The notes: generated from the sequence alone by a model not told the origin. DNA of 64,000 nucleotides from a bacterium (GCA_024228495.1 JAAETJ010000241.1:4627-68626), one strand, 5' to 3'; positions 30,337 to 62,213 are shown, numbered from the stretch's first letter. A program made the numbers and translations.

Positions 30337-30364
30337 AAACACCCTCCAAAAGTGCTTGTAGCTC

Positions 30365-38026: not shown

Positions 38027-38032
38027 AAAAAT

Positions 38033-38152: not shown

Positions 38153-38182
38153 GAATTGCGCATCTCCACAATGAGATAAAAC

Positions 38183-46357: not shown

Positions 46358-46456
46358 AGATCAATAGAGCCAAAATATGGACCAGTAAATATATTTGCTT
46401 CATATAATACACAAGTTATAATGCCGATATCTTTAATAAATGCGTGAGGAAAAAAA

Positions 46457-47029
46457 ATGAAGAAAATTTTTGCCGGATTGATGTGTACTTTTTTCACCTT
46501 GCACGCCACCCTTGCTTATGGAAGTGATCAAGACAAGCTGACAAAGGAAGCTAGAACCGTCATGAAAGGTGTCGGCAAGCAACTCAAGACAACGCTGGTT
46601 TCGGCGATGAAAAAAGGCGGACCCGTGAATGCCCTTGGAGTCTGCAACACCAAAGCCGGTCCGATCACGATGAGAAATGCCAGGGAAACCGGTTGGGATA
46701 TTGGGCGGACCTCTTTGAAGCTGCGCAATCCCTCCAATGGGGCTGATGCCTGGGAACTCGCGGTTCTAAAAGACTTCGAGGCGAAAAAAGCAGCCGGAGC
46801 AAACCCTAAAAAGCTGGAATATTCTGCTATCATCGAAAAAGATGGGAAAAAAATATTCCGCTATATGAAGGCCATTCCTACTGCCGCGCCCTGTCTTCAT
46901 TGTCATGGAAAGCAGATACAAGCACCAGTGAAAGAAAAGATTGCAGCTCATTATCCAAGTGACAAGGCCATCGGCTTTAAACGTGGCGATATTCGTGGTG
47001 CATTTTCTGTGTCAAAAGAGCTAAAATAA
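46457..47029 (+). CDS. periplasmic DUF3365 (Tll0287-like) c-type haem protein
   Basis: Signal peptide, a single CXXCH (CLHCH) near the C-terminus, and the typical tail RGDIRGAFSV. Confidence 0.7.
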   Translation: MKKIFAGLMCTFFTLHATLAYGSDQDKLTKEARTVMKGVGKQLKTTLVSAMKKGGPVNALGVCNTKAGPITMRNARETGWDIGRTSLKLRNPSNGADAWELAVLKDFEAKKAAGANPKKLEYSAIIEKDGKKIFRYMKAIPTAAPCLHCHGKQIQAPVKEKIAAHYPSDKAIGFKRGDIRGAFSVSKELK

Positions 47030-47046
47030 ACAGCCTATCTCGCTGT

Positions 47047-48429
47047 TCAATCACGCTTGCAACGCCGCACGAAATCAACGAAGCGCACGGCCCAGTCATT
47101 TTGAGCAGTAGTACGGTGGTGGCAAAAGCCCGCTTGCACATTGTCCAAGACAATGCCGTCATGAGCACCATCGATACCATGGCCACGCAGCACTTTATGC
47201 GCAAATACCGTATCGTCTGGCAGACCCTCCAATGAGGCATAGTGGAATTCGTGAGCCTTGATGGTCGCGGGCTGCTCATCACCACTTTGCTCGGGCCAAG
47301 CGCCCTGCCCGGTTTCTTGCAAAAGCACCAAACCACGCCCTTGCGGCGCGTCATGCATGGTGACAGTACCAGGGATAAAGCCAACCATTTCGGCGATCTC
47401 ATCTCTCCAGATGATCTGCTTTGAGAGGTACATCAGACCACCACATTCGGCATAGACGGGTAGGCCGCCTTGCGCCGCAACTTTTATATCAGCACGAAGG
47501 GACTTGTTGTTCTGCAAGGCTTTCATATGGGTTTCAGGGAAGCCTCCCCCCAAAAACAGGCCATCAATAGCGGGCAATTTTTGTTCTTCAAGTGTGTTCA
47601 CAAACACCAGCTCCGCCCCCGCATTTTCAAGCGTTTCCAAATCATCTTGATAGTAAAAGCCAAAGGCGCTATCGCGAGCGATACCGATGCGTAACTTGTG
47701 GGGCATGGTTTCAACAACGGGGACAGATTTCGATGTTGGGGGCGGCGGTGCCAATTGTGCCATTTCACTCAGTTGGTCAATATCCAGGGATGCTTCCATC
47801 ATCTTCGCCAGCTCAGTGATACGCTCAGATACATGATCGCTTTCACTGGGTGGCACCAAACCAAGATGGCGCTCTGGTGCCAGCAGGTTATTATCGCGCG
47901 GCACGGAACCAACGATCGATATATCCGTATAGCGCTCTACCGAAGTGCGCAGTTTATCTTCCTGGCGAGGACTGCCAACCTTGTTAAAAATGACGCCAGC
48001 GATATTTACATTTGGATCAAACGTGCTGTAGCCTACCAGCAACGGTGCGATCCCACGCGTAATGCCCATGACATCAATTACCAGAATGACCGGCGCTTGC
48101 AGCTTGACCGCCAGAGCTGCGTTAGAATCCTGACCATCGAGGGCCACGCCATCATAAAGACCCTTGTTGCCCTCGATCAGCCCTATCTCGGAATCAGCCA
48201 GTTTCCGCGCGAACAAATCCATGATCTCCTCGGTGTTCTGAGTATTGAAATCCAAATTATAACACGGGTGATCTGAAGCGAGTTGCAGCCATAGTGGATC
48301 AATATAGTCCGGCCCTTTTTTGAAGGTCTGAACCCTAGAGCCGCGTCTTGTTAACGCAGCCGCCAATCCCACTGACAAAGTGGTCTTGCCCGATGACTTG
48401 TGAGCCGCTGATATATAAAGGTGCGCCAA
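47047..48429 (-). CDS. dsrN: cobyrinic acid a,c-diamide synthase family protein, DsrN (sirohaem amidase)
   Basis: CobB/CbiA N-terminus (ISAAHKSSGKTT) plus a glutamine amidotransferase C-terminus (YAECGGLMYL). It is the last gene of the dsr operon, as in Allochromatium vinosum. Confidence 0.85.
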   Translation of the reverse strand: MAHLYISAAHKSSGKTTLSVGLAAALTRRGSRVQTFKKGPDYIDPLWLQLASDHPCYNLDFNTQNTEEIMDLFARKLADSEIGLIEGNKGLYDGVALDGQDSNAALAVKLQAPVILVIDVMGITRGIAPLLVGYSTFDPNVNIAGVIFNKVGSPRQEDKLRTSVERYTDISIVGSVPRDNNLLAPERHLGLVPPSESDHVSERITELAKMMEASLDIDQLSEMAQLAPPPPTSKSVPVVETMPHKLRIGIARDSAFGFYYQDDLETLENAGAELVFVNTLEEQKLPAIDGLFLGGGFPETHMKALQNNKSLRADIKVAAQGGLPVYAECGGLMYLSKQIIWRDEIAEMVGFIPGTVTMHDAPQGRGLVLLQETGQGAWPEQSGDEQPATIKAHEFHYASLEGLPDDTVFAHKVLRGHGIDGAHDGIVLDNVQAGFCHHRTTAQNDWAVRFVDFVRRCKRD

Positions 48430-48452
48430 AATAAACTCGACAGCCTTAAGGA

Positions 48453-49640
48453 CTACTGATTTTCCGTGACGGGAGCTGGCAGGAACGGCAATATTTTAAG
48501 GGCAAATCCGACAATAAACATCGCCATGGAAACGCCCGCCAGCCCGAGCAGAAGCTCTGGCATAGTTGGCATATAGTTGGCATATACGCCATCCTGGAAG
48601 GTACTGGTTACCCCCATCCCCGGAAACAGGCTCAAGGGATATGACTGACCACCAATGATGATGACATACGTATGAGCCATGCCACCAAGCAGCATCAAAA
48701 TGGAAGAAAAGGTCAGCCCTGCTCTTGAGGATCCAAAATCAGATTTCATCAAAATCAGAAGTGGCAAAACGGTACCAAGGAACACATGCCCGCCCCAGAA
48801 CAACCAGGTAAAGACACTGCCACTCCACAAGATATAGCGCTCAACGCCGATATGCTCTGCCGCATACAAATTGGTGAGATGATGAACTAGGGTAAAATAC
48901 AACATGGCGGCAATAAAGATAATGAACAGCTCGCGCAGTTTTTCCGAAACCCCTTGAGTGAGCAAACGATGACCCGTTGCCTGACACATGGTGATCAACA
49001 CCCATACAGTGAATGCCATGCCATAAACAAAGGAGGAGGAAATAAACAACGGCGCCATGATGGCTGCATCATAAGCTTCACGTGCGACCAGAAACCCAAA
49101 GATGGAGCCTGTACCAGTAGTCAAAATAATCCGCCAAATAAAGGCGCCCCAACCAGCGGCCTTGTTAAAGCGGGTAACGGTCTTGTCCATCATGGTCCAC
49201 AGATAGATCCCGACAATCGTGATAAAGCCAGTATAGAGGATGATATTCCACGCAAAGATGGATTTGAAATTATAATGGGTCATCGCAACGATCAAACGAT
49301 CCGGGCGACCAAGGTCGAGCAAAAGAACGACCAGACCACCAATCAGCAGCGCAATCGCCAAAATCGCAGATAAACGTGCAAAACGTTTGTAGGCCAGTTT
49401 GCTAAAAACAGAAGAAGCAGAAGCCAGATTAAGAGCGCCGGACGCAGAGACGATCAAGAAAACCGCGAACACATGTGGCAGCCCCCAGACAATTTGATTA
49501 TTCATGCCAGTGACGACGTGACCATTGTGCTCCATATAAAAGGCGGCACCCAAGCCGATCGCGATAATCAAAACATGCAGCACCAACAAGATATTGAAAC
49601 CGTAGTTATATTCGCGAAGCTGTCTATATGTCTCTGCCAT
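48453..49640 (-). CDS. dsrP: DsrP, NrfD/PsrC-like integral membrane quinone-interacting subunit
   Basis: 395 aa with ~10 TM helices, located after dsrO. Confidence 0.85.
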   Translation of the reverse strand: MAETYRQLREYNYGFNILLVLHVLIIAIGLGAAFYMEHNGHVVTGMNNQIVWGLPHVFAVFLIVSASGALNLASASSVFSKLAYKRFARLSAILAIALLIGGLVVLLLDLGRPDRLIVAMTHYNFKSIFAWNIILYTGFITIVGIYLWTMMDKTVTRFNKAAGWGAFIWRIILTTGTGSIFGFLVAREAYDAAIMAPLFISSSFVYGMAFTVWVLITMCQATGHRLLTQGVSEKLRELFIIFIAAMLYFTLVHHLTNLYAAEHIGVERYILWSGSVFTWLFWGGHVFLGTVLPLLILMKSDFGSSRAGLTFSSILMLLGGMAHTYVIIIGGQSYPLSLFPGMGVTSTFQDGVYANYMPTMPELLLGLAGVSMAMFIVGFALKILPFLPAPVTENQ

Positions 49641-49699
49641 TTTCTCTTCTCACATTCAAAATTGCGACCCATCAATTCTCGACAAGGAGAACGGGAACA

Positions 49700-50476
49700 T
49701 CAAATATTTCTGTAACGGACACCAGGATCAAGATTGAGATCTGCACGCACCTGCTGGGTAGCCACAGACTTGATCAATTGTGCAAGCTTGCTCGTCTTGT
49801 CATTCAAGTCACCAAATACCATGGCACCCTCGGGGGCCGCTTTCACGCAAGCAGGTTCCTTGCCTTCATCAACCAGATGCACGCACATGGTGCAGCTTTC
49901 GACGGTGCCAATGCCGCGCGGGGCATGTTCTTTTTGATCTTCAATATGTTCATGTACAAAGGAGCGTGCTTTGTAAGGGCAAGCCATCATGCAATAGCGA
50001 CAACCAATACAAATATGCTTGTCGACCAGTACGATCCCATCCTTGCGCTTGAACGATGCCCCCGTTGGACACACATCCACACAAGGGGCTTCAGCACAAT
50101 GCTGGCACATCATCGGCAAAGAGAATTGCTCATCGGTCTTCTTGTTTTTGAGATTAACGCGGCGGATCCATTGCGCATCTGTCATGGGTTTGCCGGTATC
50201 ACGCCAGCCGTTTTCGTCCTGACAGGCCTTGACGCAGGCATCGACATCCTCATCGCTAAACTTTGCAGCATCGATCAGCAATCCCCAGCGTGATTTGGTG
50301 GTCACAGCTTGTTCGGCTGGCTTGGTGATCGCTTCGCCATAAGCGAACAATGTCATGCCAGGGGCGAGCGCAAGTGCTGCAGCCGACCCCTTTAGAAATT
50401 TACGGCGGCCAGCTTCATCGACAGGTGCCGTTTTGTGTTCACCCGCTTCTATCTGACCTTGCTTCAAGGAGATCAT
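49700..50476 (-). CDS. dsrO: DsrO, periplasmic Tat-exported 4Fe-4S ferredoxin-like subunit
   Basis: Twin-arginine signal (GRRKFLKGSAAALA) and several CxxCxxCxxxCP-type clusters. The start overlaps the dsrJ stop (ATGA). Confidence 0.9.
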   Translation of the reverse strand: MISLKQGQIEAGEHKTAPVDEAGRRKFLKGSAAALALAPGMTLFAYGEAITKPAEQAVTTKSRWGLLIDAAKFSDEDVDACVKACQDENGWRDTGKPMTDAQWIRRVNLKNKKTDEQFSLPMMCQHCAEAPCVDVCPTGASFKRKDGIVLVDKHICIGCRYCMMACPYKARSFVHEHIEDQKEHAPRGIGTVESCTMCVHLVDEGKEPACVKAAPEGAMVFGDLNDKTSKLAQLIKSVATQQVRADLNLDPGVRYRNI

Positions 50477-50997
50477 TTGACTTCTCCTGCAATAAATCTG
50501 CGCAATGTCGTGTCCGTTGTATCGCCCGTTTTGCCAATCGAGGAAAGGCCCGCCAACTTGTCATGGGAATTGCCAGCAGCCTTGGTCGCTTTGTTCAATG
50601 AGTCTTCAGGACGCGAGGCATGACAATCAAAGCAGTCAATACGTACGGCTGCATAATCGTGGCAGGAGCGACAAAAATGGCGCTCATCCTTAACCGTCAC
50701 ACATTTATTGCTCTTATCTTTGACGGCATGGCAGGCAATACATTTCTTAAGACTATATTTTTTTGTTCTGATACCGTCACGCATGGTTTGATCACGTTTG
50801 TGATCAAGCAAGGTCATATGCGTTTTGCGCATTTCCTTGGGATCAAGATCACATTGTCCACCAATCGCCTTAGGTGGATTTGGCATCCATTCAGGCTGTG
50901 CACTTGCCTGCCCGACTGACGCCAGTAAGCTCACACCAATGAATGCTACGCCAAGCAGTGTTATGATCAGCTTTTGCATGATGAGTACAATTTTCAT
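50473..50997 (-). CDS. dsrJ: DsrJ, periplasmic trihaem cytochrome c
   Basis: Three CXXCH motifs (CIACH, CRSCH, CFDCH) and a signal/anchor LIITLLGVAFIGVSLLASVGQASA. ATG 50997 lies downstream of GGAGG. The ORF-track start is 51039. Confidence 0.85.
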   Translation of the reverse strand: MKIVLIMQKLIITLLGVAFIGVSLLASVGQASAQPEWMPNPPKAIGGQCDLDPKEMRKTHMTLLDHKRDQTMRDGIRTKKYSLKKCIACHAVKDKSNKCVTVKDERHFCRSCHDYAAVRIDCFDCHASRPEDSLNKATKAAGNSHDKLAGLSSIGKTGDTTDTTLRRFIAGEVK

Positions 50998-51111
50998 CGT
51001 CTTTGCCAGTCCTCCTTCGGCCAGTCCGTTAAGGACCAAGCTTCTCTTAGCATCAAAACCTGATCGAGGTGACCACTTGCGGCTACCTCGATCATTTGTA
51101 TCGGGGCTGAC

Positions 51112-53073
51112 TTATTCGCCAAGACCCATTTCAATATAACCACTTGGGCAAACATCGGCGCAGATGTGACAACCGATACATTTGGTATAGTCGGTGTCTA
51201 CATAGCGGCCCAAAGCGGATTTGTCTTTTTTGACTTTAAAGACCGCATCCTGCGGGCAATAGATAACGCAGTTGTCGCATTCAAAGCACATCCCGCAACT
51301 CATACAGCGATCGCCTTCCTTGCTGGCCTGTTCACCAGAAAGAGATTTGATCCGCTCCTCAAAGTTGCCCATGACGTGATCGGCATCAACCAGTACATGA
51401 TCACGCTTGTTGCGATCTTCGAACTGGAAATGACCCAGGAACAAATCATCATGCGCAATGATTCTAGTGGATGAGCGATCTTCATAATTGTGAACCGCCC
51501 AGTCGCTATCTGATGTACCCATTGTCTGGGTATTGTCATGCTCGGTTGGATCCAATTCACGGTTATGCAATTCGTTCAACAGGTTAAAGTGATGCACGTC
51601 CACTTTGGGGCGTTTTTTCGCATTGACCTTGCCATTGTCGAGGAAATCATTGATGGCCTCAACGGCAATGTTGGCATGACCAATGGCCGTTGTCAGAAGA
51701 TGAGGGCGCACAATATCACCAATGGCGAAATGTTTTTCCTTGTCCTTGACGCGATAGAACGTATCAACATTCATAAAGCCGCGACCATTGTCGAGGCCTT
51801 CTTCCAGACCTTCCAGATCACCAAACTGACCAATAGCCGAGACGACCATATCGCATTCGATATCATATTCTTCCGCACCCTCAACGGCAGAGGGAATACC
51901 TGTATTATCAACGGTACAATCGACTACACGCAGCGCGATAGCCAAACCTTTGTCATTTTTTACAACCTTGACCGGCATAACACCGCCCTTGATATCGATG
52001 CCTTCGCGTTTGGCATCTTCACGCTCATGTTCAGCAGCCGTCATCTGTTCGATGGGGAACAAGGACGTCAAAACCGTCGTCACTCCTACGCGATGCAAAT
52101 TGCCAGCGACGTCATGAGCGGTATAGCCAAGAACTTCGGCACCAGCCACATCCTTGTTGGCAACCTTGGTGATATGACCAAGACGACGAGCAACGGAGGC
52201 CACGTCAACCGAGGTATCACCGCCGCCTACGACAACCACTTTCTTGGCCGTACCAACTACCCAGCCTTCATTAAAGGCATCAAGGAAATCAACACCGGCG
52301 AGACAGTTCTCAGTACCTTCCCAACCCTCGGTTGGCAGGCCACGGCCCTTTTGAGCACCAATCGCCCAGACAACCGCGTCATATTCATTGATCTCTTCCA
52401 TGCTGACATCCTTGCCAACAGTTGTATTGAGACGAACCTCAACACCAAGATCAATAATACGATTGATTTCACTATCAAGCATTTCACGCGGGGTGCGATA
52501 GTTTGGAATACCGTAACGCATCATGCCACCAAGTTTGCTATGACTATCAAAGATTGTCACAGCATGACCTTTTTGGCGCAGATTATATGCGGCCGTCAAG
52601 CCACCGGGACCAGCCCCGACAATCGCGACTTTCTTGCCTGTATCAGCTCCAGTTGGAAGCAGTTTGAGATTGTTCTCATTGGCATAATCACCGACATATT
52701 GCTCAACCGAGTTGATGCCAACGGTGTCATCAAGCTCATTACGATTACAACCATCTTCACAAGGCGCAGGGCAAACGCGGCCCATGGTGGCTGGGAACGG
52801 ATTGGCTTTTGCCATGCGGTTAAACGCATATTCTTCCCAAGCCTGGCCTTCAACCGGTGACTTGTCCATGCCGCGTGCTATCGCCAGCCAGCCACGAATA
52901 TCATGACCTGACGGGCAACTACCCTGACACGGAGGCGTCTTGTGAATGTAAGTCGGGCACTTGTGGGACATATCTGCTTTAAAGATTTTATCCTGCAATT
53001 CCCATTCCGTATCACCCTCTTCAAACCGGTGATAGGTGTGACCTTCTGCTTCTATATCTGCCACGTCGCTCAT
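51112..53073 (-). CDS. dsrL: DsrL, NAD(P)H:acceptor oxidoreductase (GltD-like with a C-terminal ferredoxin domain)
   Basis: 653 aa. VAIVGAGPGGLTAA and VVVVGGGDTSVD nucleotide-binding motifs, an N-terminal Fe-S cysteine cluster, and a C-terminal 2x[4Fe-4S] domain (CMSCGMCFECDNCVIYCP...CIGCHICADVCP). Confidence 0.9.
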   Translation of the reverse strand: MSDVADIEAEGHTYHRFEEGDTEWELQDKIFKADMSHKCPTYIHKTPPCQGSCPSGHDIRGWLAIARGMDKSPVEGQAWEEYAFNRMAKANPFPATMGRVCPAPCEDGCNRNELDDTVGINSVEQYVGDYANENNLKLLPTGADTGKKVAIVGAGPGGLTAAYNLRQKGHAVTIFDSHSKLGGMMRYGIPNYRTPREMLDSEINRIIDLGVEVRLNTTVGKDVSMEEINEYDAVVWAIGAQKGRGLPTEGWEGTENCLAGVDFLDAFNEGWVVGTAKKVVVVGGGDTSVDVASVARRLGHITKVANKDVAGAEVLGYTAHDVAGNLHRVGVTTVLTSLFPIEQMTAAEHEREDAKREGIDIKGGVMPVKVVKNDKGLAIALRVVDCTVDNTGIPSAVEGAEEYDIECDMVVSAIGQFGDLEGLEEGLDNGRGFMNVDTFYRVKDKEKHFAIGDIVRPHLLTTAIGHANIAVEAINDFLDNGKVNAKKRPKVDVHHFNLLNELHNRELDPTEHDNTQTMGTSDSDWAVHNYEDRSSTRIIAHDDLFLGHFQFEDRNKRDHVLVDADHVMGNFEERIKSLSGEQASKEGDRCMSCGMCFECDNCVIYCPQDAVFKVKKDKSALGRYVDTDYTKCIGCHICADVCPSGYIEMGLGE

Positions 53074-53125
53074 GTTCTTTCTCCCTTGAGACCGCGCTTC
53101 TTACCGGCCAACTGCTTAATTCTGC

Positions 53126-54763
53126 TTATCCGATCCGGTCGTTCTGGTGCGGATCATCCATTTTTTTATCTGCTTCACTTGAAGGGGATGGCTCATCCTC
53201 GCTTTTTGCTGGGGATTCTGGAGCCGGCGTTTCTTCTTCTTTTGGCGCATCGCTCATGATAATAGCATTGCTCACCAACTGATGCACACTCTGGATAGCT
53301 TCCATATCGAAATCATATTTCGGCAATACCTTGGTAAACTGGCTTTTACAGATCGCACAGATCGCCGCCAGATTGGTGACACCATGTTCTTCGGTGACCT
53401 TGCGCAAAGCCCGCATGCGAGGCTGAGCCCCCTTGACACGAACATCCATCAAATCATCGGTCAGAATTCCGCCACCGCCACCGCAGCAGACCGTTCCTTC
53501 CTTGATCGTATCTTCATCCATATCGTGATAATTGTTGCACACTGCCTTGATAACAGCGCGCGGAATTTCAAACTGACCACCGGGCTTGTCACCCATGCGC
53601 GTCGCGCGGGCAATATTGCAGCTATCGTGGAAGGTCAGCGTCATATGATCATTTTGCGTCTTGTCGAATTCCAACTTGCCATCATTGATGGCGTCAAAGG
53701 TGAATTCGCAAACATGCTGTGGTACAGGATATTTTGGATCCAGAAAATCCCAGGGACCAGCCAGCGTATTCAAGAAAGCATAAGCAACGCGCCAGGCATG
53801 GCCACATTCACCAAAAATGATGCGCTTGACACCGAGCTCCAACGCCGCTTCGCGAATACGCAGCGATACTTTGCGCATATTATCATACGAACCGATAAAC
53901 ATGCCAAAATTACCGGCTTCAGAAGCCGTTGTGCTCAAAGTCCAATCAACGCCCAGCTCATGAAAAACCTTGGCATAACCGAACAAGCCATCAATGTGCG
54001 GCTCTGCAAAAAAGTCGGCGGAGGGCGTTACCAACAAAACATCGGCACCCTTCTTGTCCACCGGTAACTTGATTGGAATACCGGTGTCTTCTTCCAGCTC
54101 TTCTTCGAAATCTTCCATCGTCGCCTTGATGGCTTTGGCTGGCATACCCAGATTATTACCAATGGAATGAACCTTGCCGATAATCTCATTGCAATATTTC
54201 TGGCCCTTGCCAACGCTATCCATAATCTCGCGAGCGGCCATGGAAATTTCAGCGGTATCAATACCGTAAGGGCAATAGACAGAACAGCGACGACATTGTG
54301 AACACTGGTGATAATAATTATACCATTCACTCAGCACATCTTCCGTGAGATCACGGGCACCAACCAGCCAAGGAGCAATTTTTCCAGGGATCGTATAATA
54401 ACGGCGATAAACGCTGCGCAGTAAATCCTGACGGGCCACCGGCATGTTTTTGGGGTCACCCGTACCAAGATAATAATGGCATTTGTCGGTACAAGCGCCG
54501 CATTTGACACAGCTGTCCAGATAGACGCGAAAGGAACGATATTTCTGGCGCAGATCACCGATTTTGGCAATTGCCACGTCCTGCCAGTCATCAACCAGCT
54601 CACCGGGAAAGCCCAGGTCATTTTGATGTTTGGGAGCCGCTTCAAAACTGTGCAGGTCTTTCATCGCATCAGGCACCATTACTGGCATCTCAAGTGGATC
54701 AGGCAAGGCTGTATCAGCGTCGCTATTCAATTCATCCAGCTCTGATTTATCGAGTTCTGACAC
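53126..54763 (-). CDS. dsrK: DsrK, HdrD-like CCG-domain iron-sulfur catalytic subunit
   Basis: CVKCGACTDKC and CSQCRRCSVYCP clusters plus the CCG motif (VCCGGGGG). GTG start with AGGGAGGG upstream. It has an acidic Pro/Glu-rich C-terminal tail. Confidence 0.9.
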   Translation of the reverse strand: MSELDKSELDELNSDADTALPDPLEMPVMVPDAMKDLHSFEAAPKHQNDLGFPGELVDDWQDVAIAKIGDLRQKYRSFRVYLDSCVKCGACTDKCHYYLGTGDPKNMPVARQDLLRSVYRRYYTIPGKIAPWLVGARDLTEDVLSEWYNYYHQCSQCRRCSVYCPYGIDTAEISMAAREIMDSVGKGQKYCNEIIGKVHSIGNNLGMPAKAIKATMEDFEEELEEDTGIPIKLPVDKKGADVLLVTPSADFFAEPHIDGLFGYAKVFHELGVDWTLSTTASEAGNFGMFIGSYDNMRKVSLRIREAALELGVKRIIFGECGHAWRVAYAFLNTLAGPWDFLDPKYPVPQHVCEFTFDAINDGKLEFDKTQNDHMTLTFHDSCNIARATRMGDKPGGQFEIPRAVIKAVCNNYHDMDEDTIKEGTVCCGGGGGILTDDLMDVRVKGAQPRMRALRKVTEEHGVTNLAAICAICKSQFTKVLPKYDFDMEAIQSVHQLVSNAIIMSDAPKEEETPAPESPAKSEDEPSPSSEADKKMDDPHQNDRIG

Positions 54764-54784
54764 AACGGCCCTCCCTAAAAGTCG

Positions 54785-55549
54785 TTATTTCTTATCGGAT
54801 CCGCTCTCAAGTGCCTTGGCCCAGGGAGCCAGACGCCGCTTTTCGCGTGGATTATCGACCTGATTGCGGGTCGGACTGAAAAAGATCCCGGGTGCATGCA
54901 GCAGCTTGCTGTAGGGGAAAATGATCATCAATATGAGAACCAGTGTCAGATGAACCATCAAGGGCAGGCTGTCAGGCAGCGGCTGCCAGTCAAACATGTT
55001 CAAATAGGCAAGGCTCAAAAAGAAGTTTTTGACTGAAACGATATCGGTGCGATCAACATATTGCATCATGAACCCGCTGACACCGATCATGATCAGCAAC
55101 AACAGCATCAAATGATCAGAGGGCGATGAAATATAGCGCACACGATTGACAACGATCCGCCTTATGGCCAATCCCGCCAGACCAAAGACCATAGCAAAGC
55201 CAGCATATTTACCGATCGGTTGAATATAGGCGATACCCAGCCAAATGAAGTCAGGCACATGGCGCGGATCGACGAAATAGCGAATATGACGGATCAGCAC
55301 CAGCAAGAGGCCAGCATGAAACAGATAGCCAAATATCCAGATCCATTTATTGGACTTGAACAGGCTTTCAAACAGAGCTACTTCACAGAACATTCGCAAC
55401 CAGACCCCAGAAACCGTAGTCGGCGCAGGCGTGGTCGCGATATTAAGGGGGGCCGGTACTTTTGCATACTCAAAGATTCTATAAGCAATCCCGACAACCA
55501 GCAGGATTGTCGCGAAATAGAATGCAAGGGCATAAATCGTGGTGATCAC
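54785..55549 (-). CDS. dsrM: DsrM, NarI-like dihaem b membrane subunit
   Basis: 254 aa with 5-6 TM helices and conserved His residues (YLFHAGLLLVLIRHIRYF). GTG start with GGAGGA upstream. Confidence 0.85.
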   Translation of the reverse strand: MITTIYALAFYFATILLVVGIAYRIFEYAKVPAPLNIATTPAPTTVSGVWLRMFCEVALFESLFKSNKWIWIFGYLFHAGLLLVLIRHIRYFVDPRHVPDFIWLGIAYIQPIGKYAGFAMVFGLAGLAIRRIVVNRVRYISSPSDHLMLLLLIMIGVSGFMMQYVDRTDIVSVKNFFLSLAYLNMFDWQPLPDSLPLMVHLTLVLILMIIFPYSKLLHAPGIFFSPTRNQVDNPREKRRLAPWAKALESGSDKK

Positions 55550-55961
55550 GAGTTTGTTCCTCCGTTACCGACTTCTATCGTTTTCAGCTTGAAATGACTT
55601 GTCATTAACAGTGTCACATGGCTTTTCTAACGACATTTGTTCTAATTTCTCAAACACATAATTCAATTTAATCAAGCGAGCGGTCCTGGACGCAGCTCAA
55701 TCGATGATACGAGCTTTCCCAAATCGTCCCGGTCACTTGATTTAATCGCAAATCACGCTCACCGGCCCCTGGAAAAAACAACAACGTATCCCCCCTACCC
55801 TGTTATACGGCAGAACATTTGATCCTGAATACAAAGAGAGGTTTGAAACGCCTGTCGTCCCCAATCAAAAATACCTGAAGCTTTCATTTAAAAAACAACG
55901 GGCAATTTCAAAGCGCCCCACCGATCGGAGCGTTCCAACCAGCGAGACACAATTTCATTGA

Positions 55962-56294
55962 CTAGATACAGCCAGTTGGTTTTGGCAGACCGCCAACTTT
56001 ACAAGCCTGTTTGGCAGGACCATAGGGAAACAACTCATAGAGATATTTGTTGCTACCTTTTTCAGGGCCAAACTTCTTCTTAAGCGCTTTAACAAGCACG
56101 CGAATAGCAGGAGCAATTTGATACTCTTCATAATATTCGCGCAAAAAGTTAATCACCTCCCAATGCTCATCAGTCATCTCGATGCCTTCATCCTTTGCAA
56201 GCAAACCTGCAAGTTCTGGAGTCCACTGATTGATGTCAGAAAGATAACCTTCTTCGTCATGTTCAATGCTTTCGCCACCAATTTCATAAGCCAT
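55962..56294 (-). CDS. dsrC: DsrC, sulfur-trafficking/sulfite reductase substrate protein
   Basis: 110 aa ending ...AKQACKVGGLPKPTGCI, with the two conserved C-terminal-arm cysteines. ATG 56294 has AGGAGA upstream. Confidence 0.95.
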   Translation of the reverse strand: MAYEIGGESIEHDEEGYLSDINQWTPELAGLLAKDEGIEMTDEHWEVINFLREYYEEYQIAPAIRVLVKALKKKFGPEKGSNKYLYELFPYGPAKQACKVGGLPKPTGCI

Positions 56295-56435
56295 TTTAAT
56301 TCTCCTGTTTTCTATCATTCCCGTCATTTTGCTTCTTAAATCAAGAAACAACCGAAAGCGGGAATTCTTTTTTACAAAAGCCTTTTCCGCTCAATTCCCA
56401 AGCCCAACCCATTGCCAGGTCAGATTTTCAAGGTA

Positions 56436-56741
56436 TTACAGCCATGCCTGTGTTGCTGTGTGCTTTTCGACCAGGTCGACAAAACCACCAAAATCAACAC
56501 TTTCAATGCCATCGATCATGGTCTGATTGGCGAGACCGCGCGCATCAACATCTGGACCAAGTACATAGAACTTGATATTGCCCATGCGCTTTTTGATAAA
56601 GTCGGCGACCGCAGTATTGTCGAGAGCGCCATAGACGCCATCTTCGATCAGCAAGATACCAGCGCCGTCCTCGCAAACCCGCAGGCAGCTTTCGAGCGTA
56701 TTACGCTCAAAAGGCGACTTGTTCACTGTATGTAGTAGCAT
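56436..56741 (-). CDS. dsrH: DsrH sulfurtransferase subunit
   Basis: MLLHTVNKSPFERNTLESCL...VDFGGFVDLVEKHTATQAWL closely follows the A. vinosum DsrH pattern as I recall it. Confidence 0.9.
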   Translation of the reverse strand: MLLHTVNKSPFERNTLESCLRVCEDGAGILLIEDGVYGALDNTAVADFIKKRMGNIKFYVLGPDVDARGLANQTMIDGIESVDFGGFVDLVEKHTATQAWL

Positions 56742-56753
56742 ATTCAGTCTCCT

Positions 56754-57146
56754 TTAGGCTGTCAGAATTACTTCTTGTTTCGACATCAGAGATTTAAGAT
56801 CATCAGAACTCAAAACTTCAACCGGCACAACCAAATCTTCGACGGTCAGACCACGTGCTTCCAGACTTTCTTTTTCGACATAGAGTTTTTCAACGTCATA
56901 GCCTTCAAGTGCCCGAAATGTTGGCGAAAAATTCTTCATGTTGACGCCTTTGGTCTCTTGCTCTTTCTTGAGCTGATAGACCCCATCATCCATAAAAACC
57001 ACATGCACATCTTGTTCAAAAGCGGCAGCGATCAAAACTTTCTCAAGCATTTCCAGAGCATAGACCGTCCCATAAGGGGCCTTGCGATTGACATACATGA
57101 AGCGTTTGACAACTTCTGGTCCGTCCTCATCCCATTCTTCTTCCAT
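56754..57146 (-). CDS. dsrF: DsrF sulfurtransferase subunit
   Basis: DsrE/F fold (FMYVNRKAPYGT...). ATG 57146 has AGGAGA 6 nt upstream. The ORF-track start is 57167. Confidence 0.9.
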   Translation of the reverse strand: MEEEWDEDGPEVVKRFMYVNRKAPYGTVYALEMLEKVLIAAAFEQDVHVVFMDDGVYQLKKEQETKGVNMKNFSPTFRALEGYDVEKLYVEKESLEARGLTVEDLVVPVEVLSSDDLKSLMSKQEVILTA

Positions 57147-57156
57147 CAAATATCTC

Positions 57157-57531
57157 CTAATCACCAAACGTTATCTGTCGGTCTGCAACGATACCGGATT
57201 CAATCAACTGCCCCAGACCCGAGATACGGAATCCAGGTGCCAGAATGTCATCCTTGATACCGCGACGTAGCGCAGCAGCAACACAGACAACGAGGTCCAC
57301 TTTGTGCTCCTCAGCAAGTGCTGACCAGAGTTTCACAAGGTCCCTGTCGTCAGCCTGTGGCTCGGACAGTTTATTGGCGTTATTCACACCATCATAATAA
57401 AAGAACACCCGATAAATCTCGTGCCCTTTTTCCAATGCAGCCTTCGTAAACAGATAGGCGCTATCAGATGCTTGGTGCTGAAACGGCCCTTCATTGACCA
57501 GAATACCAAATTTCAAAGCGTCATCCCCCAA
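57157..57531 (-). CDS. dsrE: DsrE sulfurtransferase subunit (active-site Cys)
   Basis: LKFGILVNEGPFQHQASDSAYLFTKAALEKGHEIYRVFFYYDGV...VVCVAAALRRG. Compared with A. vinosum DsrE from memory, the real start may be TTG 57516 (GGGGGA 7 nt upstream) rather than TTG 57531. Confidence 0.9.
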   Translation of the reverse strand: MGDDALKFGILVNEGPFQHQASDSAYLFTKAALEKGHEIYRVFFYYDGVNNANKLSEPQADDRDLVKLWSALAEEHKVDLVVCVAAALRRGIKDDILAPGFRISGLGQLIESGIVADRQITFGD

Positions 57532-57683
57532 CTTGATAAGTTACGTTTTTTTCAACAGGCTTTCGCCATGTTGTAATTTCGCTCATGTCAGACGTTCAAA
57601 GCAACTATGCTTATCCGCCTCGCTTCATTATGACGCAATCCATACCCAAAATGAGCAAGCTCAAAATCAAAAGGACCGCAAAG

Positions 57684-57712
57684 AGTAGAGGCATACAAAA
57701 TACGCCTCTACT
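57684..57712 (-). terminator. putative partial terminator / stabilising hairpin after dsrB
   Basis: GTAGAGGC (57685-92) pairs with GCCTCTAC (57704-11). On the minus-strand RNA it is followed by the U-rich CUUUGCGGUCCUUUUGAUUUUGA. Confidence 0.5.
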
Positions 57713-57726
57713 TACTTGTCTTCGCT

Positions 57727-57749
57727 CTAGTCGATAAGTTCTCGACTAG
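57727..57749 (-). other. perfect 8-bp hairpin spanning the dsrB stop codon
   Basis: CTAGTCGA (57727-34) pairs with TCGACTAG (57742-49), and the dsrB TAG lies within the right arm. Confidence 0.6.
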
Positions 57750-58828
57750 AAGCGGATATGCGCCGAGTGGTTCATTGAATTGCGAGCGCCGACCCAAGTA
57801 TCAATGTGATGCTTGGTAAAGGCGAACCCGGTTTTTTCAAAGAAGGCAGGCCAACCGATACGGTCAATCCACTCTCCAACACGCTCCCAATCACGCGCAT
57901 CAGCTTTGTAAATGGATAGAATTGTGCGAACAACCGCCTCAACTTCAGGCCAACGCGGTGGATTATTGGGAAGGTTAGCAACCACAAGTTTGTGAAACGT
58001 TGGTTTGGAGCGCGCATTTGAATGCTTGCCACCCACCCACACTGCAATCCGGGTTTCTTCTTTACCGTTGATCTGCATAGGCGGACAAGGCGCGAAACAC
58101 GCACCACAGCAAATGCATTTCTTTTCGTCAACTTCAAGCGATGGCTTGCCATTGACCATGGCTGGGCGAATAGCCGCAACCGGACAACGAGCCACAACAG
58201 ATGGGCGCTCACAAACCTTGCTGACGAGATCATGATTGATCCGTGGTGGTTTGGTATATTGCACATTGATGGCGATATCACCCTGGCCACCACAGTTAAT
58301 CTGACAACAAGATGTTGTCACCTTGACGCGGTTAGGCATCTCTTCAGAAATAAAGTCCTTATGGAAGATATCCATCAGACTTTTTGTGACGCCAGAAGCG
58401 TCTGTTCCTGGAATGTCGCAATGCAACCAACCCTGCGTATGGGAGACCATGGCAATCGAATTGCCGGTACCACCAACGGGATAGCCAGCTTCACCAAGTT
58501 TGGCGATCAGTGGATCAACCTTGCTTTGATCGGCGCACAAGAATTCAAGAGAGCTACGCGCGGTAAAACGCAGGAAGCCATCGCAAAACTCGTCAGCCAA
58601 ATCGCACAATTGATGGATCTGGAATGAATCCATCTGACGCGTTGTACCCGCCTTGACAGTCCAGATTTCATCGCCACTTTTTGCAACATGATGCAAAACA
58701 CCTGGGCGTGGCCGGTCGTGCCAGTCCCATTTTCCGTAATTGGCTTTCATAATCGGGTGCATATATGGCATGGGATCTGGAACACCGTGCTCATCGGGTA
58801 GCTTTGGCGGTGGTGGTCTATCATTCAT
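57746..58828 (-). CDS. dsrB: dissimilatory sulfite reductase beta subunit (oxidative type by context)
   Basis: 360 aa with sirohaem/Fe-S cysteine motifs (TSCCQINCGG, CERPSVVARCP, KKCICCGACFAPCP). Confidence 0.95.
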   Translation of the reverse strand: MNDRPPPPKLPDEHGVPDPMPYMHPIMKANYGKWDWHDRPRPGVLHHVAKSGDEIWTVKAGTTRQMDSFQIHQLCDLADEFCDGFLRFTARSSLEFLCADQSKVDPLIAKLGEAGYPVGGTGNSIAMVSHTQGWLHCDIPGTDASGVTKSLMDIFHKDFISEEMPNRVKVTTSCCQINCGGQGDIAINVQYTKPPRINHDLVSKVCERPSVVARCPVAAIRPAMVNGKPSLEVDEKKCICCGACFAPCPPMQINGKEETRIAVWVGGKHSNARSKPTFHKLVVANLPNNPPRWPEVEAVVRTILSIYKADARDWERVGEWIDRIGWPAFFEKTGFAFTKHHIDTWVGARNSMNHSAHIRF

Positions 58829-58931
58829 ATTAAATTCTCCTTGATCTTCCTCTTGTCGAGACCCGTTTCAGCCTCTGGAATTCTGATTGAAAGATCTGAT
58901 AAACAAGGATCCACCAGATCAATATTGTTTG

Positions 58932-60188
58932 CTATTCAGCAGCTTCTGCCTCACCTTTTTTGACGAAATATTTAGCGGCCTCCTCATCGAAATCGGATGT
59001 ATCAACATAGCTCGATGTACGTGGATGCGCGATCATATTGGGGTTTGGATCGATGCTCAGAGCTTCCAGGAAGTCCGGCAGACCAACGCGGTCGATAGTT
59101 TCACCAACGCGTTCATGCTCAAGGGCATTGTCAGCAAAGAAGTCAATGCATTCACCGGCAAATTCAACCAATTCGTCATAATCTTCGTCGCTATCAAGCT
59201 TGATGAAAGGCTTGATCATGGTACCCATGAGATCGCCTATTTTCAGTGAGCGCTTGCCGCCCATGAGGATTGAAGCGCCTTTGTCATCGCCAGGAGATAG
59301 AGCCTTTGGCATGACGTTGAGGCAATGCATGCAACGAACACAGCTGCGATTGTCAATCTCGACGGTATCATTGTCATTCAGCGAGATGGCGTTGCTTGGG
59401 CAACGGGTCACAACACTGTCTATGAAATATTTGCGACCCGCTTCTTTTATGTAAGCAGTGACCTCTTCCTGGTTGATCTTGATATCATCACGCCAGGTAC
59501 CTATGACGGCGAAATCGGAGCGATGGATGGCATTGACGCAGTCATTACCACAACCAGAGAATTTGAATTTGAACTTGTAGGGAAGCGCAGGACGATGCAT
59601 TTCATCAAGATATTCATTGATGATCATGCGCATGGCTTTGGCCTCATCATAGCAGGACATTTCGCAACGGGCATGGCCAACACAGCTCATGCTCGTACGA
59701 AGAGCAGGGCCAGCACCACCAAGGTCAAAACCAAGAGCGTTGAGTTTGTCAAAAGCTGGCTGGGTCTGTTCGGTTGTACAACCCTGGAACATAATGTCAC
59801 CAGATTGTCCATGAAACGCAATCAAACCTGAACCATGCTCTTCCCAGATATCACTCATGGAGCGCAAAAGATCGGTAGTGTAATGCATGCCAGCTGGCGG
59901 CATGATGCGCAGAGTATGAAATTCTTTTGCTGCTGGATAGACATCAGCTACTTCGGAGAAACGAGGAATAATACCACCGCCATAACCAAACACCGAAACC
60001 GTGCCGCCCTTCCAGAAACCAAGGCGCTCTTGATAAGAATGCTCAAGCTGTCCCAAAATGTCATTGACCATTGGCGTATAAGATTTGCCACTGTCGCGCA
60101 GACGTTTCAGCGCCGTCACAAAACTAGGCCATGGACCTTTTTCCAGCTCATCAAGCATGTCGGTTGAGTGAATTTTCATATCTGACAT
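58932..60188 (-). CDS. dsrA: dissimilatory sulfite reductase alpha subunit (oxidative type by context)
   Basis: From ATG 60188 (GGAGGG 8 nt upstream) the product starts MSDMKIHSTDMLDELEKGPWPSFVTALKRL, aligning with DsrA N-termini. Motifs include SMSCVGHARCEMSC, FSGCGNDC and a ferredoxin insert CVRCMHC. 418 aa. The full ORF extends to 60485. Confidence 0.9.
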   Translation of the reverse strand: MSDMKIHSTDMLDELEKGPWPSFVTALKRLRDSGKSYTPMVNDILGQLEHSYQERLGFWKGGTVSVFGYGGGIIPRFSEVADVYPAAKEFHTLRIMPPAGMHYTTDLLRSMSDIWEEHGSGLIAFHGQSGDIMFQGCTTEQTQPAFDKLNALGFDLGGAGPALRTSMSCVGHARCEMSCYDEAKAMRMIINEYLDEMHRPALPYKFKFKFSGCGNDCVNAIHRSDFAVIGTWRDDIKINQEEVTAYIKEAGRKYFIDSVVTRCPSNAISLNDNDTVEIDNRSCVRCMHCLNVMPKALSPGDDKGASILMGGKRSLKIGDLMGTMIKPFIKLDSDEDYDELVEFAGECIDFFADNALEHERVGETIDRVGLPDFLEALSIDPNPNMIAHPRTSSYVDTSDFDEEAAKYFVKKGEAEAAE

Positions 60189-60485
60189 ATTGTCGTTCCC
60201 TCCTTCGGATATCTCTTTTTTTGCTTCTTCAATTTGCTGTGAGGCATTTCCTATCGCGTTTCCCTGAACATCAAATTCAAGAATCGCATCGCCTGCTTCA
60301 AGCTGTATTTCTATCTCATCGAGTCGCTCCAGAGCGGTGAAGTAACGCGCTTGTTCTTCATCTTTTTTTAGTTCTTCAACAGCCTTATTACGCAAATCTT
60401 GAATAGACCTTAGTAAACTTTCCTTATTCAATTCGCTCCTCCTCCGGCGTATCGACTCAATCCCGCAAACCATCGCCATCAACAA
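60189..60485 (-). other. 99-codon stop-free in-frame region upstream of the dsrA start (possible N-terminal extension or translated leader)
   Basis: Same frame as dsrA with no stop codon. It encodes a Glu/Lys/Leu-rich helical sequence. An internal GGAGGAGGAG (60436-60445) precedes an in-frame TTG (60431). Confidence 0.35.
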
Positions 60486-60941
60486 TGAGCGCGCACTATA
60501 TAGGTTGTTTTTGGCCTGACATGGCGCTTAATTCCCATCTCACTGGCTCGCGAAGTTCAACCTCGATATCAGATCGTATGAACCCACATCAAAACAAATC
60601 CTGCACCACATTTTTATCACTTGCAGTCCATTGAATATGCGGTTTATATCATTGAAGTAGAATATTTAAAAGCGCTAATATGAATTTGCATGTAAACTCG
60701 CTGTCAAATAGTCTCAAACAACCAAGCATATGAAGAAAAATTGTAAAAAATGCGTTTATTTACAAAAGGTTATAAAAACAAGAATACAGCTTAAAACAAC
60801 CATTCTTGCGCTGCTATGTGGAAGGATTATCTCCCTTTCAAGCGATACGATATAGTTTGAATTGGCAAAAATGAGGCAATATGTCCCGAATTCTATTTTC
60901 GAGAAAACAGACCGTAACAGGGTATTGGACACAAGTATAAA

Positions 60942-61865
60942 ATGAAACCTGGAACAAAAAAGCAAGCAGCCATCTATCGGCTTGATCGGAGCGAGGTTTA
61001 TAAACATTGGCGCGACGACAAGCTGTCGCATGCCTCGATTGATGCTAGCGAGATACTCGTAGAGATAGAGGATATCAGTGCGCCGAACCCGACTGAAAGC
61101 GCCGAGATCCTCAAGCATTGCTGCCATAATAATATGGCGCTGTACCGCTGCAATAGTGCATGCGACAAAGAACAGGTGGTACGAAACAAGGCCCATGCCT
61201 TTGCCCATCATTTTGGCTTGCACCGGGTCGAACAGCACCGCTCCATGACGCCGGACGGGCTGGTATCAATTGAGATCATCGACAATAGCACGGAGGGCCG
61301 TGCGGGCTTTATCCCCTACACCGACAAACCAATCAGCTGGCACACCGATGGCTACTATAATCCAACGACCTCGCGCATTAAGGCGATGATCCTGCATTGC
61401 GTGCGCTCAGCGCCAGAGGGCGGCATCAATGAGCTATTTGATCCCGAACTCGCTTATATCGCGCTGCGCGACGAAAATCCCGACTATATCAACGCTTTGT
61501 CCCATCGCCGCACTCTGACGATACCAGCTTTCGCGGAAAAGGATGGGACTACACGAGCTCAATCTGTTGGTCCCGTCTTTACCTGGGATCGCTATACCGG
61601 CAATCTCCACATGCGCTTCACCGATCGCAAACGCTATATCGAATGGTGCAAAGATGACATAACAGCCGAAGCTGTCGGTTTTTTGCGCCACGTGCTTGCC
61701 AATGACGATCATGTCCTTAAATATAAAATGAACGCTGGCGAGGGCATTATCTGTAACAATGTCCTGCATAACCGCTCCGCGTTTGAGGACAATAACAAGC
61801 CCGCAGCAGGCCGTCTGCTCATGCGCGCACGCTATCTCGACCGTATTGAGGGTACCTGCGACTGA
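60942..61865 (+). CDS. TauD/TfdA-family Fe(II)/2-oxoglutarate-dependent dioxygenase
   Basis: 307 aa. HxD in ISWHTDGYY, a distal His in VLHNRSAF and an Arg-rich C-terminus. It is divergent from dsrA. Confidence 0.7.
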   Translation: MKPGTKKQAAIYRLDRSEVYKHWRDDKLSHASIDASEILVEIEDISAPNPTESAEILKHCCHNNMALYRCNSACDKEQVVRNKAHAFAHHFGLHRVEQHRSMTPDGLVSIEIIDNSTEGRAGFIPYTDKPISWHTDGYYNPTTSRIKAMILHCVRSAPEGGINELFDPELAYIALRDENPDYINALSHRRTLTIPAFAEKDGTTRAQSVGPVFTWDRYTGNLHMRFTDRKRYIEWCKDDITAEAVGFLRHVLANDDHVLKYKMNAGEGIICNNVLHNRSAFEDNNKPAAGRLLMRARYLDRIEGTCD

Positions 61866-61969
61866 GCGGCGCTTAACAATAGACGCCAACCTTGTTAAAA
61901 TCCCCACAATAGATACGAAAAAAAGGCAACAGCCCCCCTTGGAAGCCTTGCCATAGAAGGGACAAAAAC

Positions 61970-62200
61970 ATGCATTTAAGTGATCTGATTATTTCAAACC
62001 CGGAAGTAACAAATTTTGACGATCTAAAACAACTTATTGTTGCTGCAGCTCAATCTGGTGAACGCTTTTTGCATCTCGATATCAAGCCGGATTATCGCGA
62101 CACACCAAGCAATTGGGAACTCAAGCTGGAAGCTGCGTTCTACTGGGGCGACCAAATCCTCCCGCCAGCCGAAAACGCCGCCAAAAAAGAAAACAAATAG
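61970..62200 (+). CDS. hypothetical small protein (76 aa)
   Basis: GAAGGGA lies 7 nt upstream of the ATG. The product is acidic with a Lys-rich tail and no Cys. No family recognised. Confidence 0.5.
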   Translation: MHLSDLIISNPEVTNFDDLKQLIVAAAQSGERFLHLDIKPDYRDTPSNWELKLEAAFYWGDQILPPAENAAKKENK

Positions 62201-62213
62201 AAGGCTGAAGCAA

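Follow-up and report, generated by a model that had tools for sequence, protein, structure and literature searches.

A stretch of 64,000 nucleotides of bacterial DNA (GCA_024228495.1, JAAETJ010000241.1:4627-68626), in the following called the window, harbours a cluster of dsr genes that very probably encodes a functional dissimilatory sulfite reductase (Dsr) system of the oxidative, reverse type (rDsr) of an uncultured, marine Hyphomicrobiaceae-like alphaproteobacterium. Thirteen consecutive and intact minus-strand open reading frames (ORFs) in the order dsrABEFHCMKLJOPN occupy positions 47047-60188 (all coordinates are positions in the window, counted from its first letter), as determined from the ORF table and from NCBIfam and Pfam matches. 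None of the 13 genes shows a frameshift or an internal stop, their lengths and family matches are as expected, and no unassigned ORF is present inside the operon. An earlier description of the window that was made from the DNA alone (the sequence-only reading) had reported thirteen minus-strand dsr genes in the Allochromatium vinosum order, and all of them are indeed present, intact and in order. The cluster is real and far beyond chance. Because the identical 13-gene order is found in 45 of 80 related genome loci, most of the others being interrupted by contig ends, it is a cluster of a known kind; it is canonical, adds another member to a known arrangement and was correctly recognised by the sequence-only reading. 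The genes, in the order of transcription, are:

dsrA, 58932-60188, minus strand: alpha subunit of oxidative-type dissimilatory sulfite reductase, 418 amino acids (aa); TIGR02064, 553 bits
dsrB, 57746-58828, minus strand: beta subunit, 360 aa; TIGR02066, 478 bits
dsrE, 57157-57516, minus strand: 119 aa, probable TTG start at 57516; TIGR03012 (TusD), 141 bits
dsrF, 56754-57146, minus strand: 130 aa; TIGR03010 (TusC), 136 bits; Shine-Dalgarno (SD) motif TAGGAG ahead of the ATG at 57146
dsrH, 56436-56741, minus strand: 101 aa; TIGR03011 (TusB), 95 bits
dsrC, 55962-56294, minus strand: 110 aa, both C-terminal cysteines; DsrC/TusE family TIGR03342, 163 bits
dsrM, 54785-55549, minus strand: membrane dihaem cytochrome b (NarI-like), 254 aa; Pfam Nitrate_red_gam, 69 bits
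dsrK, 53126-54763, minus strand: cytoplasmic iron-sulfur (Fe-S) protein with CCG domain, 545 aa; NF045796, 596 bits; CCGGGGG in the translation
dsrL, 51112-53073, minus strand: Fe-S flavoprotein NAD(P)H oxidoreductase, 653 aa; PRK12771, 687 bits
dsrJ, 50473-50997, minus strand: periplasmic trihaem cytochrome c, start at 50997 or 50979; three CXXCH motifs (CIACH, CRSCH, CFDCH)
dsrO, 49700-50476, minus strand: periplasmic Fe-S protein with twin-arginine signal (RRKFLKG); NF045797, 295 bits
dsrP, 48453-49640, minus strand: NrfD-type integral membrane quinone-interacting subunit, 395 aa; Pfam NrfD, 167 bits
dsrN, 47047-48429, minus strand: CobB-type glutamine amidotransferase (sirohaem amidase), 460 aa, TTG start

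The dsrA translation shows the CX5C and CX3C cysteine motifs for sirohaem/[4Fe-4S] binding. DsrE, DsrF and DsrH match TusD, TusC and TusB, all above cut-off, and DsrN matches both TIGR00379 cobB (CobB-type a,c-diamide synthase, 412 bits) and an F430 CfbB-type model (415 bits). The DsrMKJOP membrane complex is complete: DsrK and DsrO score above cut-off, while DsrM, DsrJ and DsrP are backed by the Pfam families Nitrate_red_gam and NrfD and by the three CXXCH motifs.

Relationship to oxidative and reductive Dsr systems

Loci for comparison were collected with the DsrB of the window; this yielded the 80 related loci, from 68 of which DsrA and DsrB were extracted. They include Chromatiaceae, Thiodiazotropha, Sedimenticola, SUP05, Vesicomyosocius and alphaproteobacteria, and nearly all of the 68 carry dsrEFH and dsrL where the contig permits. 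The DsrAB of D. vulgaris, D. gigas and A. fulgidus, taken from PDB alignments (crystallised enzymes, 2v4j and 3mm5 among them), served as reductive references. Over 756 columns of concatenated DsrAB the window shares 64.6-87.8% identity with the 68 loci and 44.5-44.9% with the three reductive enzymes. The placement of DsrAB among oxidative and reductive enzymes, which the sequence-only reading had proposed as a check, was run as a neighbour-joining tree with these three references and put the window in the oxidative group. In this tree, rooted on the reductive enzymes, the window stands with one of its two closest relatives (L002, see below) in a Hyphomicrobiales/Rhodobacterales clade of the proteobacterial oxidative group.

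The sulfur-transferring proteins retain the residues expected of such a system. The alignment of DsrE with its A. vinosum counterpart (2hy5_A, E 1.5e-46) starts at residue 1 and shows Cys78 kept, and DsrH aligns with A. vinosum DsrH (2hy5_C, E 7e-33) with the equivalent of Cys20 kept. DsrC aligns end to end with A. vinosum DsrC (1yx3, E 2e-49), up to the C-terminus (...AKQACKVGGLPKPTGCI); comparison of the C-termini (...QACKVGGLPKPTGCI in the window, ...QACRFAGLPKPTGCV in 1yx3) shows that CysA and CysB are conserved, as the sequence-only reading had stated for both C-terminal cysteines of DsrC.

DsrL has the domain order Fer4_20, Pyr_redox_2 and Fer4 dicluster. Type 1 DsrL proteins lack a YRR motif, and those of type 1A are further marked by a long linker and by an insert of ~32 aa in the NAD-binding domain (PMC7596348). 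In the 653-aa protein of the window, SLF is found at the position of the NADP-binding YRR of Nfn/GltD relatives, ~35 extra residues (301-335) in the NAD-binding domain are unmatched in these relatives, and ~100 residues separate the flavoprotein body from the C-terminal ferredoxin. As judged from its sequence, it has the features of DsrL-1A in the sense of PMC7596348, a study according to which carriers of rDsrAB and DsrL-1 can be called sulfur oxidisers with confidence. As to dsrD, the dsrB-dsrE spacer contains no coding-strand ORF of more than 36 aa, a result that holds for the locus only. The DsrAB grouping, the cysteines of DsrEFH and DsrC, the DsrL-1A features and the lack of dsrD in the locus together support the oxidative (reverse) assignment made earlier.

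Relatives and host

The best DsrB matches come from two metagenome-assembled genomes (MAGs), the 'Alphaproteobacteria' MAG Dive100_bin1.47 (L001, 94%) and the Hyphomicrobiaceae MAG D100SM.bin.2 (L002, 89%). L001 and the window are collinear for 11.3 kb (87% nucleotide identity), beginning within dsrA and ending within dsrN. The source paper of Dive100_bin1.47 classes this genome as Rhizobiales;Hyphomicrobiaceae without a genus. Both MAGs stem from hydrothermal chimneys of the Southwest Indian Ridge, and their papers list Rhizobiales and Hyphomicrobiaceae among the rDsr-bearing sulfur oxidisers. The window represents another strain or species than these vent genomes, and public assemblies contain no exact match to its DsrB or DsrC.

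A SAM-II (SAM_alpha) riboswitch at 30351-30428 (minus strand, 69 bits) is located upstream of an O-succinylhomoserine sulfhydrylase gene (29032-30342). It was the only hit of an Rfam scan of the window, in which no tRNA was found, and it is far from the dsr locus. Since this riboswitch is a hallmark of alphaproteobacteria, it supports a predicted alphaproteobacterial host; such a host had been named in the sequence-only reading and is likewise supported by the nearest relatives being Rhizobiales;Hyphomicrobiaceae. The cluster adds an uncultured Hyphomicrobiaceae-like lineage, kin of the hydrothermal-chimney MAGs, to the alphaproteobacteria with a canonical dsrABEFHCMKLJOPN, and supports annotation of that lineage as a cytoplasmic sulfur oxidiser.

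The G+C content of the dsr locus is 0.46-0.50 and that of the window 0.46-0.54. Between the window and L001 the coding regions are 83-95% identical and most long spacers 71.5-84.5%. Because the coding regions are better conserved than most long spacers, the comparison suggests that purifying selection acts on the dsr coding regions.

Alternative explanations

Two other explanations of the cluster have to be weighed. The enzymes might operate in the reductive or disproportionating direction, with sulfite, for instance from organosulfonates via the dioxygenase-like DsrQ, being reduced or disproportionated. DsrAB catalysis is reversible in principle, which counts for this explanation, and dsrQ is a neighbour of dsrA. 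It has also been speculated that DsrQ frees sulfite from sulfonates, which is then possibly disproportionated (PMC7596348). However, DsrAB falls within the oxidative group, the active-site cysteines of DsrEFH are present, DsrL is devoid of the YRR motif that PMC7596348 ties to reductive use, dsrD was not found at the locus, and the nearest curated families of DsrQ are betaine and trimethyllysine hydroxylases, all far below cut-off, and not TauD proper. We therefore regard a reductive or disproportionating role as very unlikely. Even less probable, in our view hardly worth considering, is that the dsr genes were acquired recently as an island or are a remnant in decay, uninformative on the physiology of the host. 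Gammaproteobacterial loci (Woeseiaceae, Xanthomonadales) do nest among alphaproteobacterial ones in the DsrAB tree, from which it follows that dsr genes have moved between classes, and horizontal transfer of dsrEFH is discussed in PMC11406059. Nevertheless, thirteen genes without frameshift or internal stop, a G+C content in line with the surrounding window, housekeeping flanks (thiOGE, cysG) and no transposase or integrase adjoining the locus do not fit an island or remnant, nor does the same arrangement in a related MAG at 87% identity, with coding regions mostly better kept than the long spacers.

Several points weigh against a functional oxidative system, which we nonetheless prefer. The DsrAB tree is a neighbour-joining tree without bootstraps and with three reductive references only. 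The DsrL-1A call was made via Nfn/GltD relatives and published criteria only. DsrM (160 bits at a cut-off of 300), DsrJ (63 bits) and DsrP (64 bits) have the respective NCBIfam models as their best matches there, yet remain below cut-off; these models carry the name of the DsrMKJOP complex of sulfate reduction, and oxidative DsrM, DsrJ and DsrP homologs are missed by them at their cut-offs. Finally, soeABC, aprAB/sat, sox, sqr, fcc and tusA/rhd/dsrE2 were not found among the larger ORFs of the 64-kb window, so that the entry and exit steps of the pathway are not seen in it.

Proposed pathway and comparison with known systems

The following steps are inferred from the A. vinosum model. Sulfane sulfur that enters the cytoplasm would be taken over by Cys78 of DsrE in the DsrEFH complex and then be handed to the C-terminal cysteines of DsrC. 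The sirohaem-containing DsrAB would oxidise the DsrC-bound sulfur to sulfite, with the electrons presumably being passed to NAD+ by the DsrL-1A flavoprotein. The membrane complex DsrMKJOP may couple the redox cycling of DsrC with the quinone pool and the periplasm. Sirohaem would be provided by CysG and amidated by DsrN.

In comparison to the experimentally characterised dsrABEFHCMKLJOPNRS of A. vinosum, the first 13 genes are in identical order, DsrE, DsrH and DsrC can be aligned over their full length with the solved proteins, the functional cysteines being kept, and DsrL bears the 1A features described for AvDsrL. The two differ as follows: in A. vinosum dsrN is followed by dsrR and dsrS, whereas the window has a convergent haem-protein gene at this position; the A. 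vinosum DsrE contains an 11-residue loop that is missing in the DsrE of the window; and the window has long, hairpin-bearing spacers past dsrB and dsrC as well as a divergent dsrQ-orf76-DUF6967-cysG module. With the reductive DsrAB-DsrC and DsrMKJOP systems (D. vulgaris 2v4j, A. fulgidus 3mm5) the window shares homologous DsrA, DsrB, DsrC and DsrMKJOP proteins and the same cofactor-binding cysteine motifs, but the DsrAB identity is only ~45%, and the window has dsrEFH, dsrL and dsrN in the operon and no dsrD in the locus.

Note that 13 of the related loci (L005, L009, L013, L014, L024, L027, L031, L043, L051, L054, L061, L071 and L078) have an extra segment of 1.0-1.3 kb between dsrP and dsrN, which is present neither in the window nor in L001 and L002. 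In L084 (6508-7515) and L090 (1905-2912) this position is taken by a Glycos_trans_3N (anthranilate phosphoribosyltransferase-like) gene.

Boundaries of the cluster

The upper bound of dsrA had been placed at 60485 by the sequence-only reading, which is 297 nt too far upstream. Position 60485 is the first TTG of the maximal dsrA ORF, in which the match to the DsrA profile begins only at residue 111. The SD motif GAAGGAGG stands ahead of an ATG at 60188, the 99 codons upstream of this ATG (60189-60485) are without a homolog in the 80 related loci, and the DNA similarity to L002, the second-closest relative, starts at 60182. For these reasons dsrA was set to 58932-60188. The in-frame extension of 99 codons, which resembles a charged helical protein, was rejected as coding since it has no homologs and similarity ends at 60182; it is probably a chance open frame inside the dsrQ-dsrA intergenic region. 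This region measures 753 nt and exceeds the length seen in most related loci. Other starts that were refined are those of dsrE (TTG at 57516), dsrF (57146), dsrC (56294) and dsrJ (50997 or 50979).

At the other end, the following gene forms the downstream boundary:

Tll0287-like c-type haem protein gene, 46457-47029, plus strand: convergent to dsrN; Pfam Tll0287-like, 97 bits; CLHCH motif

It begins 17 nt past the dsrN stop and lies outside the Dsr system, in agreement with the earlier statement that the operon ends at dsrN against a convergent haem protein gene. No homolog of it was present in the 80 related loci, few of which reach past dsrN. A search for an IscA-like dsrR (tblastn with an E. 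coli IscA sequence as query) gave nothing below E 1 in the window; as the same query was also negative in the related loci, this search has no positive control.

Spacers and probable transcription units

Whether the thirteen genes are expressed as one transcript is doubtful, because the two longest of their spacers (229 and 412 nt) carry strong and conserved hairpins:

Stem-loop after dsrB, 57685-57711, minus strand: 12 bp, directly past the dsrB stop, then U-rich; candidate partial terminator or mRNA stabiliser
Stem-loop after dsrC, 55913-55950, minus strand: 17 bp, 12 nt past the dsrC stop; candidate terminator or processing barrier between dsrABEFHC and dsrMKLJOPN

An 86-nt segment of the dsrB-dsrE spacer (229 nt) has a minimum free energy (MFE) of -30.5 kcal/mol (z -4.55), and a 102-nt segment of the dsrC-dsrM spacer (412 nt) one of -37.8 kcal/mol (z -4.50); in both cases none of 200 shuffled sequences was as good. 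Both stems are retained in L001 with one-sided substitutions, while the nearby spacer varies or is deleted. The long dsrC-dsrM spacer is confined to the window, L001 and L002, and a block ~60-130 nt upstream of dsrM is highly conserved between the window and L001. At least two or three differentially expressed units are therefore probable, with dsrAB, dsrEFHC and dsrMKLJOPN as predicted from the spacers. For the divergent unit dsrQ-orf76-DUF6967-cysG, co-regulation from the common intergenic region of 753 nt is probable.

The thirteen genes could instead form one translationally coupled operon in which the hairpins have no regulatory role, a serious possibility although we consider it somewhat improbable. 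All genes have the same strand and order, SD motifs precede most starts, dsrJ and dsrO overlap, and the spacers at six more junctions measure 10-59 nt. The sequence-only reading had described several junctions as coupled and SD motifs before nearly every start. Of the 12 junctions, however, only that of dsrJ and dsrO has an overlap (ATGA), which was confirmed, and the remaining five are long (103, 229, 141, 412 and 114 nt); SD motifs are clear in 11 of the 13 genes but weak for dsrP and dsrN. A single operon is difficult to reconcile with the hairpins at the opening of the 229- and 412-nt spacers (z -4.55 and -4.50), with the conservation of both in L001 and with the conserved block upstream of dsrM. 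A secondary promoter for dsrC has been reported in A. vinosum, which also speaks against a single operon.

Against a division into several units it must be noted that a consensus promoter scan gave 24 sites at 21.7 expected, which is at chance, so that sigma-70-like promoters are not in excess, and that a consensus terminator scan was at chance as well (13 vs 17.9 expected), with both strong hairpins unreported. The evidence for the predicted units consists of the two hairpins and the spacer lengths only. Nothing convincing was detected among spacer ORFs of the dsrB-dsrE and dsrC-dsrM regions (≥20 aa) or of the dsrQ-dsrA region (≥25 aa), and a repeat search over 46400-62500 returned short, chance-like pairs only.

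The divergent module upstream of dsrA

The sequence-only reading let the locus end at dsrA and missed a module of four genes that diverges from it:

dsrQ, 60942-61865, plus strand: TauD-family Fe(II)/2-oxoglutarate dioxygenase-like protein, divergent from dsrA; Pfam TauD, 82 bits (cut-off 27)
orf76, 61970-62200, plus strand: small conserved protein of 76 aa with a core of ~58 aa; companion of rDsr loci
DUF6967 protein, 62214-62483, plus strand: 89 aa, 13 nt past orf76 and abutting cysG; Pfam DUF6967, E 7e-14
cysG, 62484-63941, plus strand: sirohaem synthase, supplies the DsrAB cofactor; NF007922, 581 bits

The spacers between these genes are 104, 13 and 0 nt long. The Hyphomicrobiaceae MAG Dive100-bin1.47 (GCA_024280895.1) carries the same arrangement, dsrA-dsrQ-orf76-DUF6967-cysG, with identical spacing (L081). 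In L002, by contrast, dsrQ, orf76 and cysG were not found within 8.6 kb upstream of dsrA. Among the 62 loci with enough upstream DNA, a divergent TauD-like gene is located at most 1.5 kb from dsrA in 27 and a divergent CysG gene at most 5 kb from dsrA in 21.

PMC7596348 cites Lenk et al. 2012 for the name dsrQ of the tauD-like gene. According to that citation, fosmids of the Roseobacter clade and most aerobic chemotrophs that oxidise sulfur have dsrQ upstream of their dsr clusters, and the gene is typical of (facultatively) aerobic chemotrophs. The window shares with these clusters, as they are described there, a tauD-like dsrQ transcribed away from dsrA, but its DsrAB is nearest to Hyphomicrobiaceae and not to Rhodobacterales. 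The trio of dsrQ, the small ORF and DUF6967 also stands beside dsrA in L085, with a protein assigned by NCBI to Ruegeria marina, and in L088 and L089; what follows the trio is cysG in the window and other genes in these three loci.

DsrQ has the profile match, the 2-His-1-carboxylate triad and the 2-oxoglutarate (2OG)-binding arginine of TauD/TfdA dioxygenases; at least 95% of 30 homologs retain the triad H134-x-D136...H276 and R291/R295 (2OG). Judging from these residues, DsrQ probably acts as a dioxygenase. A PDB relative was not found by sequence. The nearest curated families are hydroxylases of trimethylammonium substrates (TmpA, TMLD and BBOX) and not TauD proper, all far below cut-off. 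The usual guess of sulfonate cleavage by DsrQ may be wrong.

Homologs of orf76 were found in 45 of the 80 loci, always on the opposite strand and upstream of dsrA. In gammaproteobacterial loci the divergent genes begin with orf76, at a distance of 460-680 nt from dsrA, whereas in loci of alphaproteobacteria and of the Woeseiaceae type it comes after dsrQ. The alpha- and gammaproteobacterial members have 11 invariant residues in common. There is no conserved cysteine, and the orf76 protein of the window is cysteine-free. Neither Pfam nor NCBIfam gave a match. A profile search returned 2,895 database clusters (90% identity), none with a Pfam domain among the matches listed; their names are 'hypothetical' or the NCBI label 'sulfur relay protein DsrC', and homologs are assigned by NCBI to Rhodobium gokarnense and Ruegeria marina. 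Membership of orf76 in the DsrC/TusE family was rejected on the basis of an hhalign probability of 0.2% with the DsrC of the window, the absence of a Pfam DsrC match and the absence of a conserved cysteine. The label 'DsrC' is a misnomer since these proteins have no DsrC homology and no conserved cysteines; automatic annotation thus gives this name to an unrelated small protein. In the AlphaFold2 (AF2) model orf76 forms three helices with a predicted local distance difference test (pLDDT) score of ~95 over residues 1-62, and Foldseek found no PDB fold match to this model. In a limited search no name for the protein was found in the literature.

The genomic context was sampled for seven members of the orf76 family on long contigs, and all seven lie beside dsr genes, in alpha- and gammaproteobacterial contexts. 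In five of these contigs (L081, L085, L086, L088 and L089) orf76 is divergent from dsrA, while in L084 and L090 (Rhodobium gokarnense) it is found on the same strand past dsrN, in the order dsrN-dsrQ-orf-DUF6967-cysG. DUF6967 homologs follow orf76 in ~20 loci and in addition in L081, L084, L085, L088, L089 and L090. Many dsr loci, alphaproteobacterial as well as Woeseiaceae-type, contain the trio dsrQ-small ORF-DUF6967. rDsr clusters are accompanied by a set of dsrQ, DUF6967 and a small three-helix protein, often together with cysG; the set is either divergent from dsrA or appended after dsrN. On a gammaproteobacterial metagenome contig (L086 8218-9999, L087 1005-2786) the small protein is followed by an unknown 238-aa gene, a Cas6 Pfam match and a second DsrC-like gene.

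We tentatively put forward, while considering it unlikely, that the rDsr system of aerobic Proteobacteria includes components that have not been counted so far: the orf76 protein as a dedicated partner or regulator of DsrAB, and thus a functional counterpart of DsrD, would form together with DsrQ and DUF6967 an oxygen-dependent accessory module tied to sirohaem supply via cysG. If the orf76 protein indeed binds or regulates DsrAB, a gap in the oxidative Dsr model of aerobic chemotrophs would be filled. The uncharacterised module of dsrQ, the small protein and DUF6967 is the only part of the locus that might repay further work.

Other features of the window

Genes for phosphoribulokinase (prk) and a pyrophosphate (PPi)-dependent phosphofructokinase (pfp) had been named by the sequence-only reading at the left edge of the window. 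The latter was confirmed (pfp, 322-1578, plus strand, 637 bits). The former is present as an N-terminal fragment of 22 residues that runs off the left edge (1-66, minus strand), diverges from pfp and matches phosphoribulokinase positions 1-22 with E 3e-7. A pairing of prk and pfp occurs in energy-saving variants of the Calvin cycle in sulfur-oxidising symbionts. No RuBisCO gene was found in the window, and the lithoautotrophy predicted by the sequence-only reading is based on pfp and the 22-residue prk fragment.

A rhodanese-metallo-beta-lactamase fusion with weak SoxH-related matches (24868-26244, minus strand), unlinked to the dsr locus, may handle sulfur transfer or persulfide. An imuA-like/imuB/dnaE2 mutagenesis cassette (35668-41440, plus strand) comprises an error-prone DNA polymerase gene (1435 bits) with an ORF of the ImpB/MucB family upstream. 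The flagellar hook and hook-associated genes flgE, flgK and flgL (16908-21815, minus strand) indicate motility.

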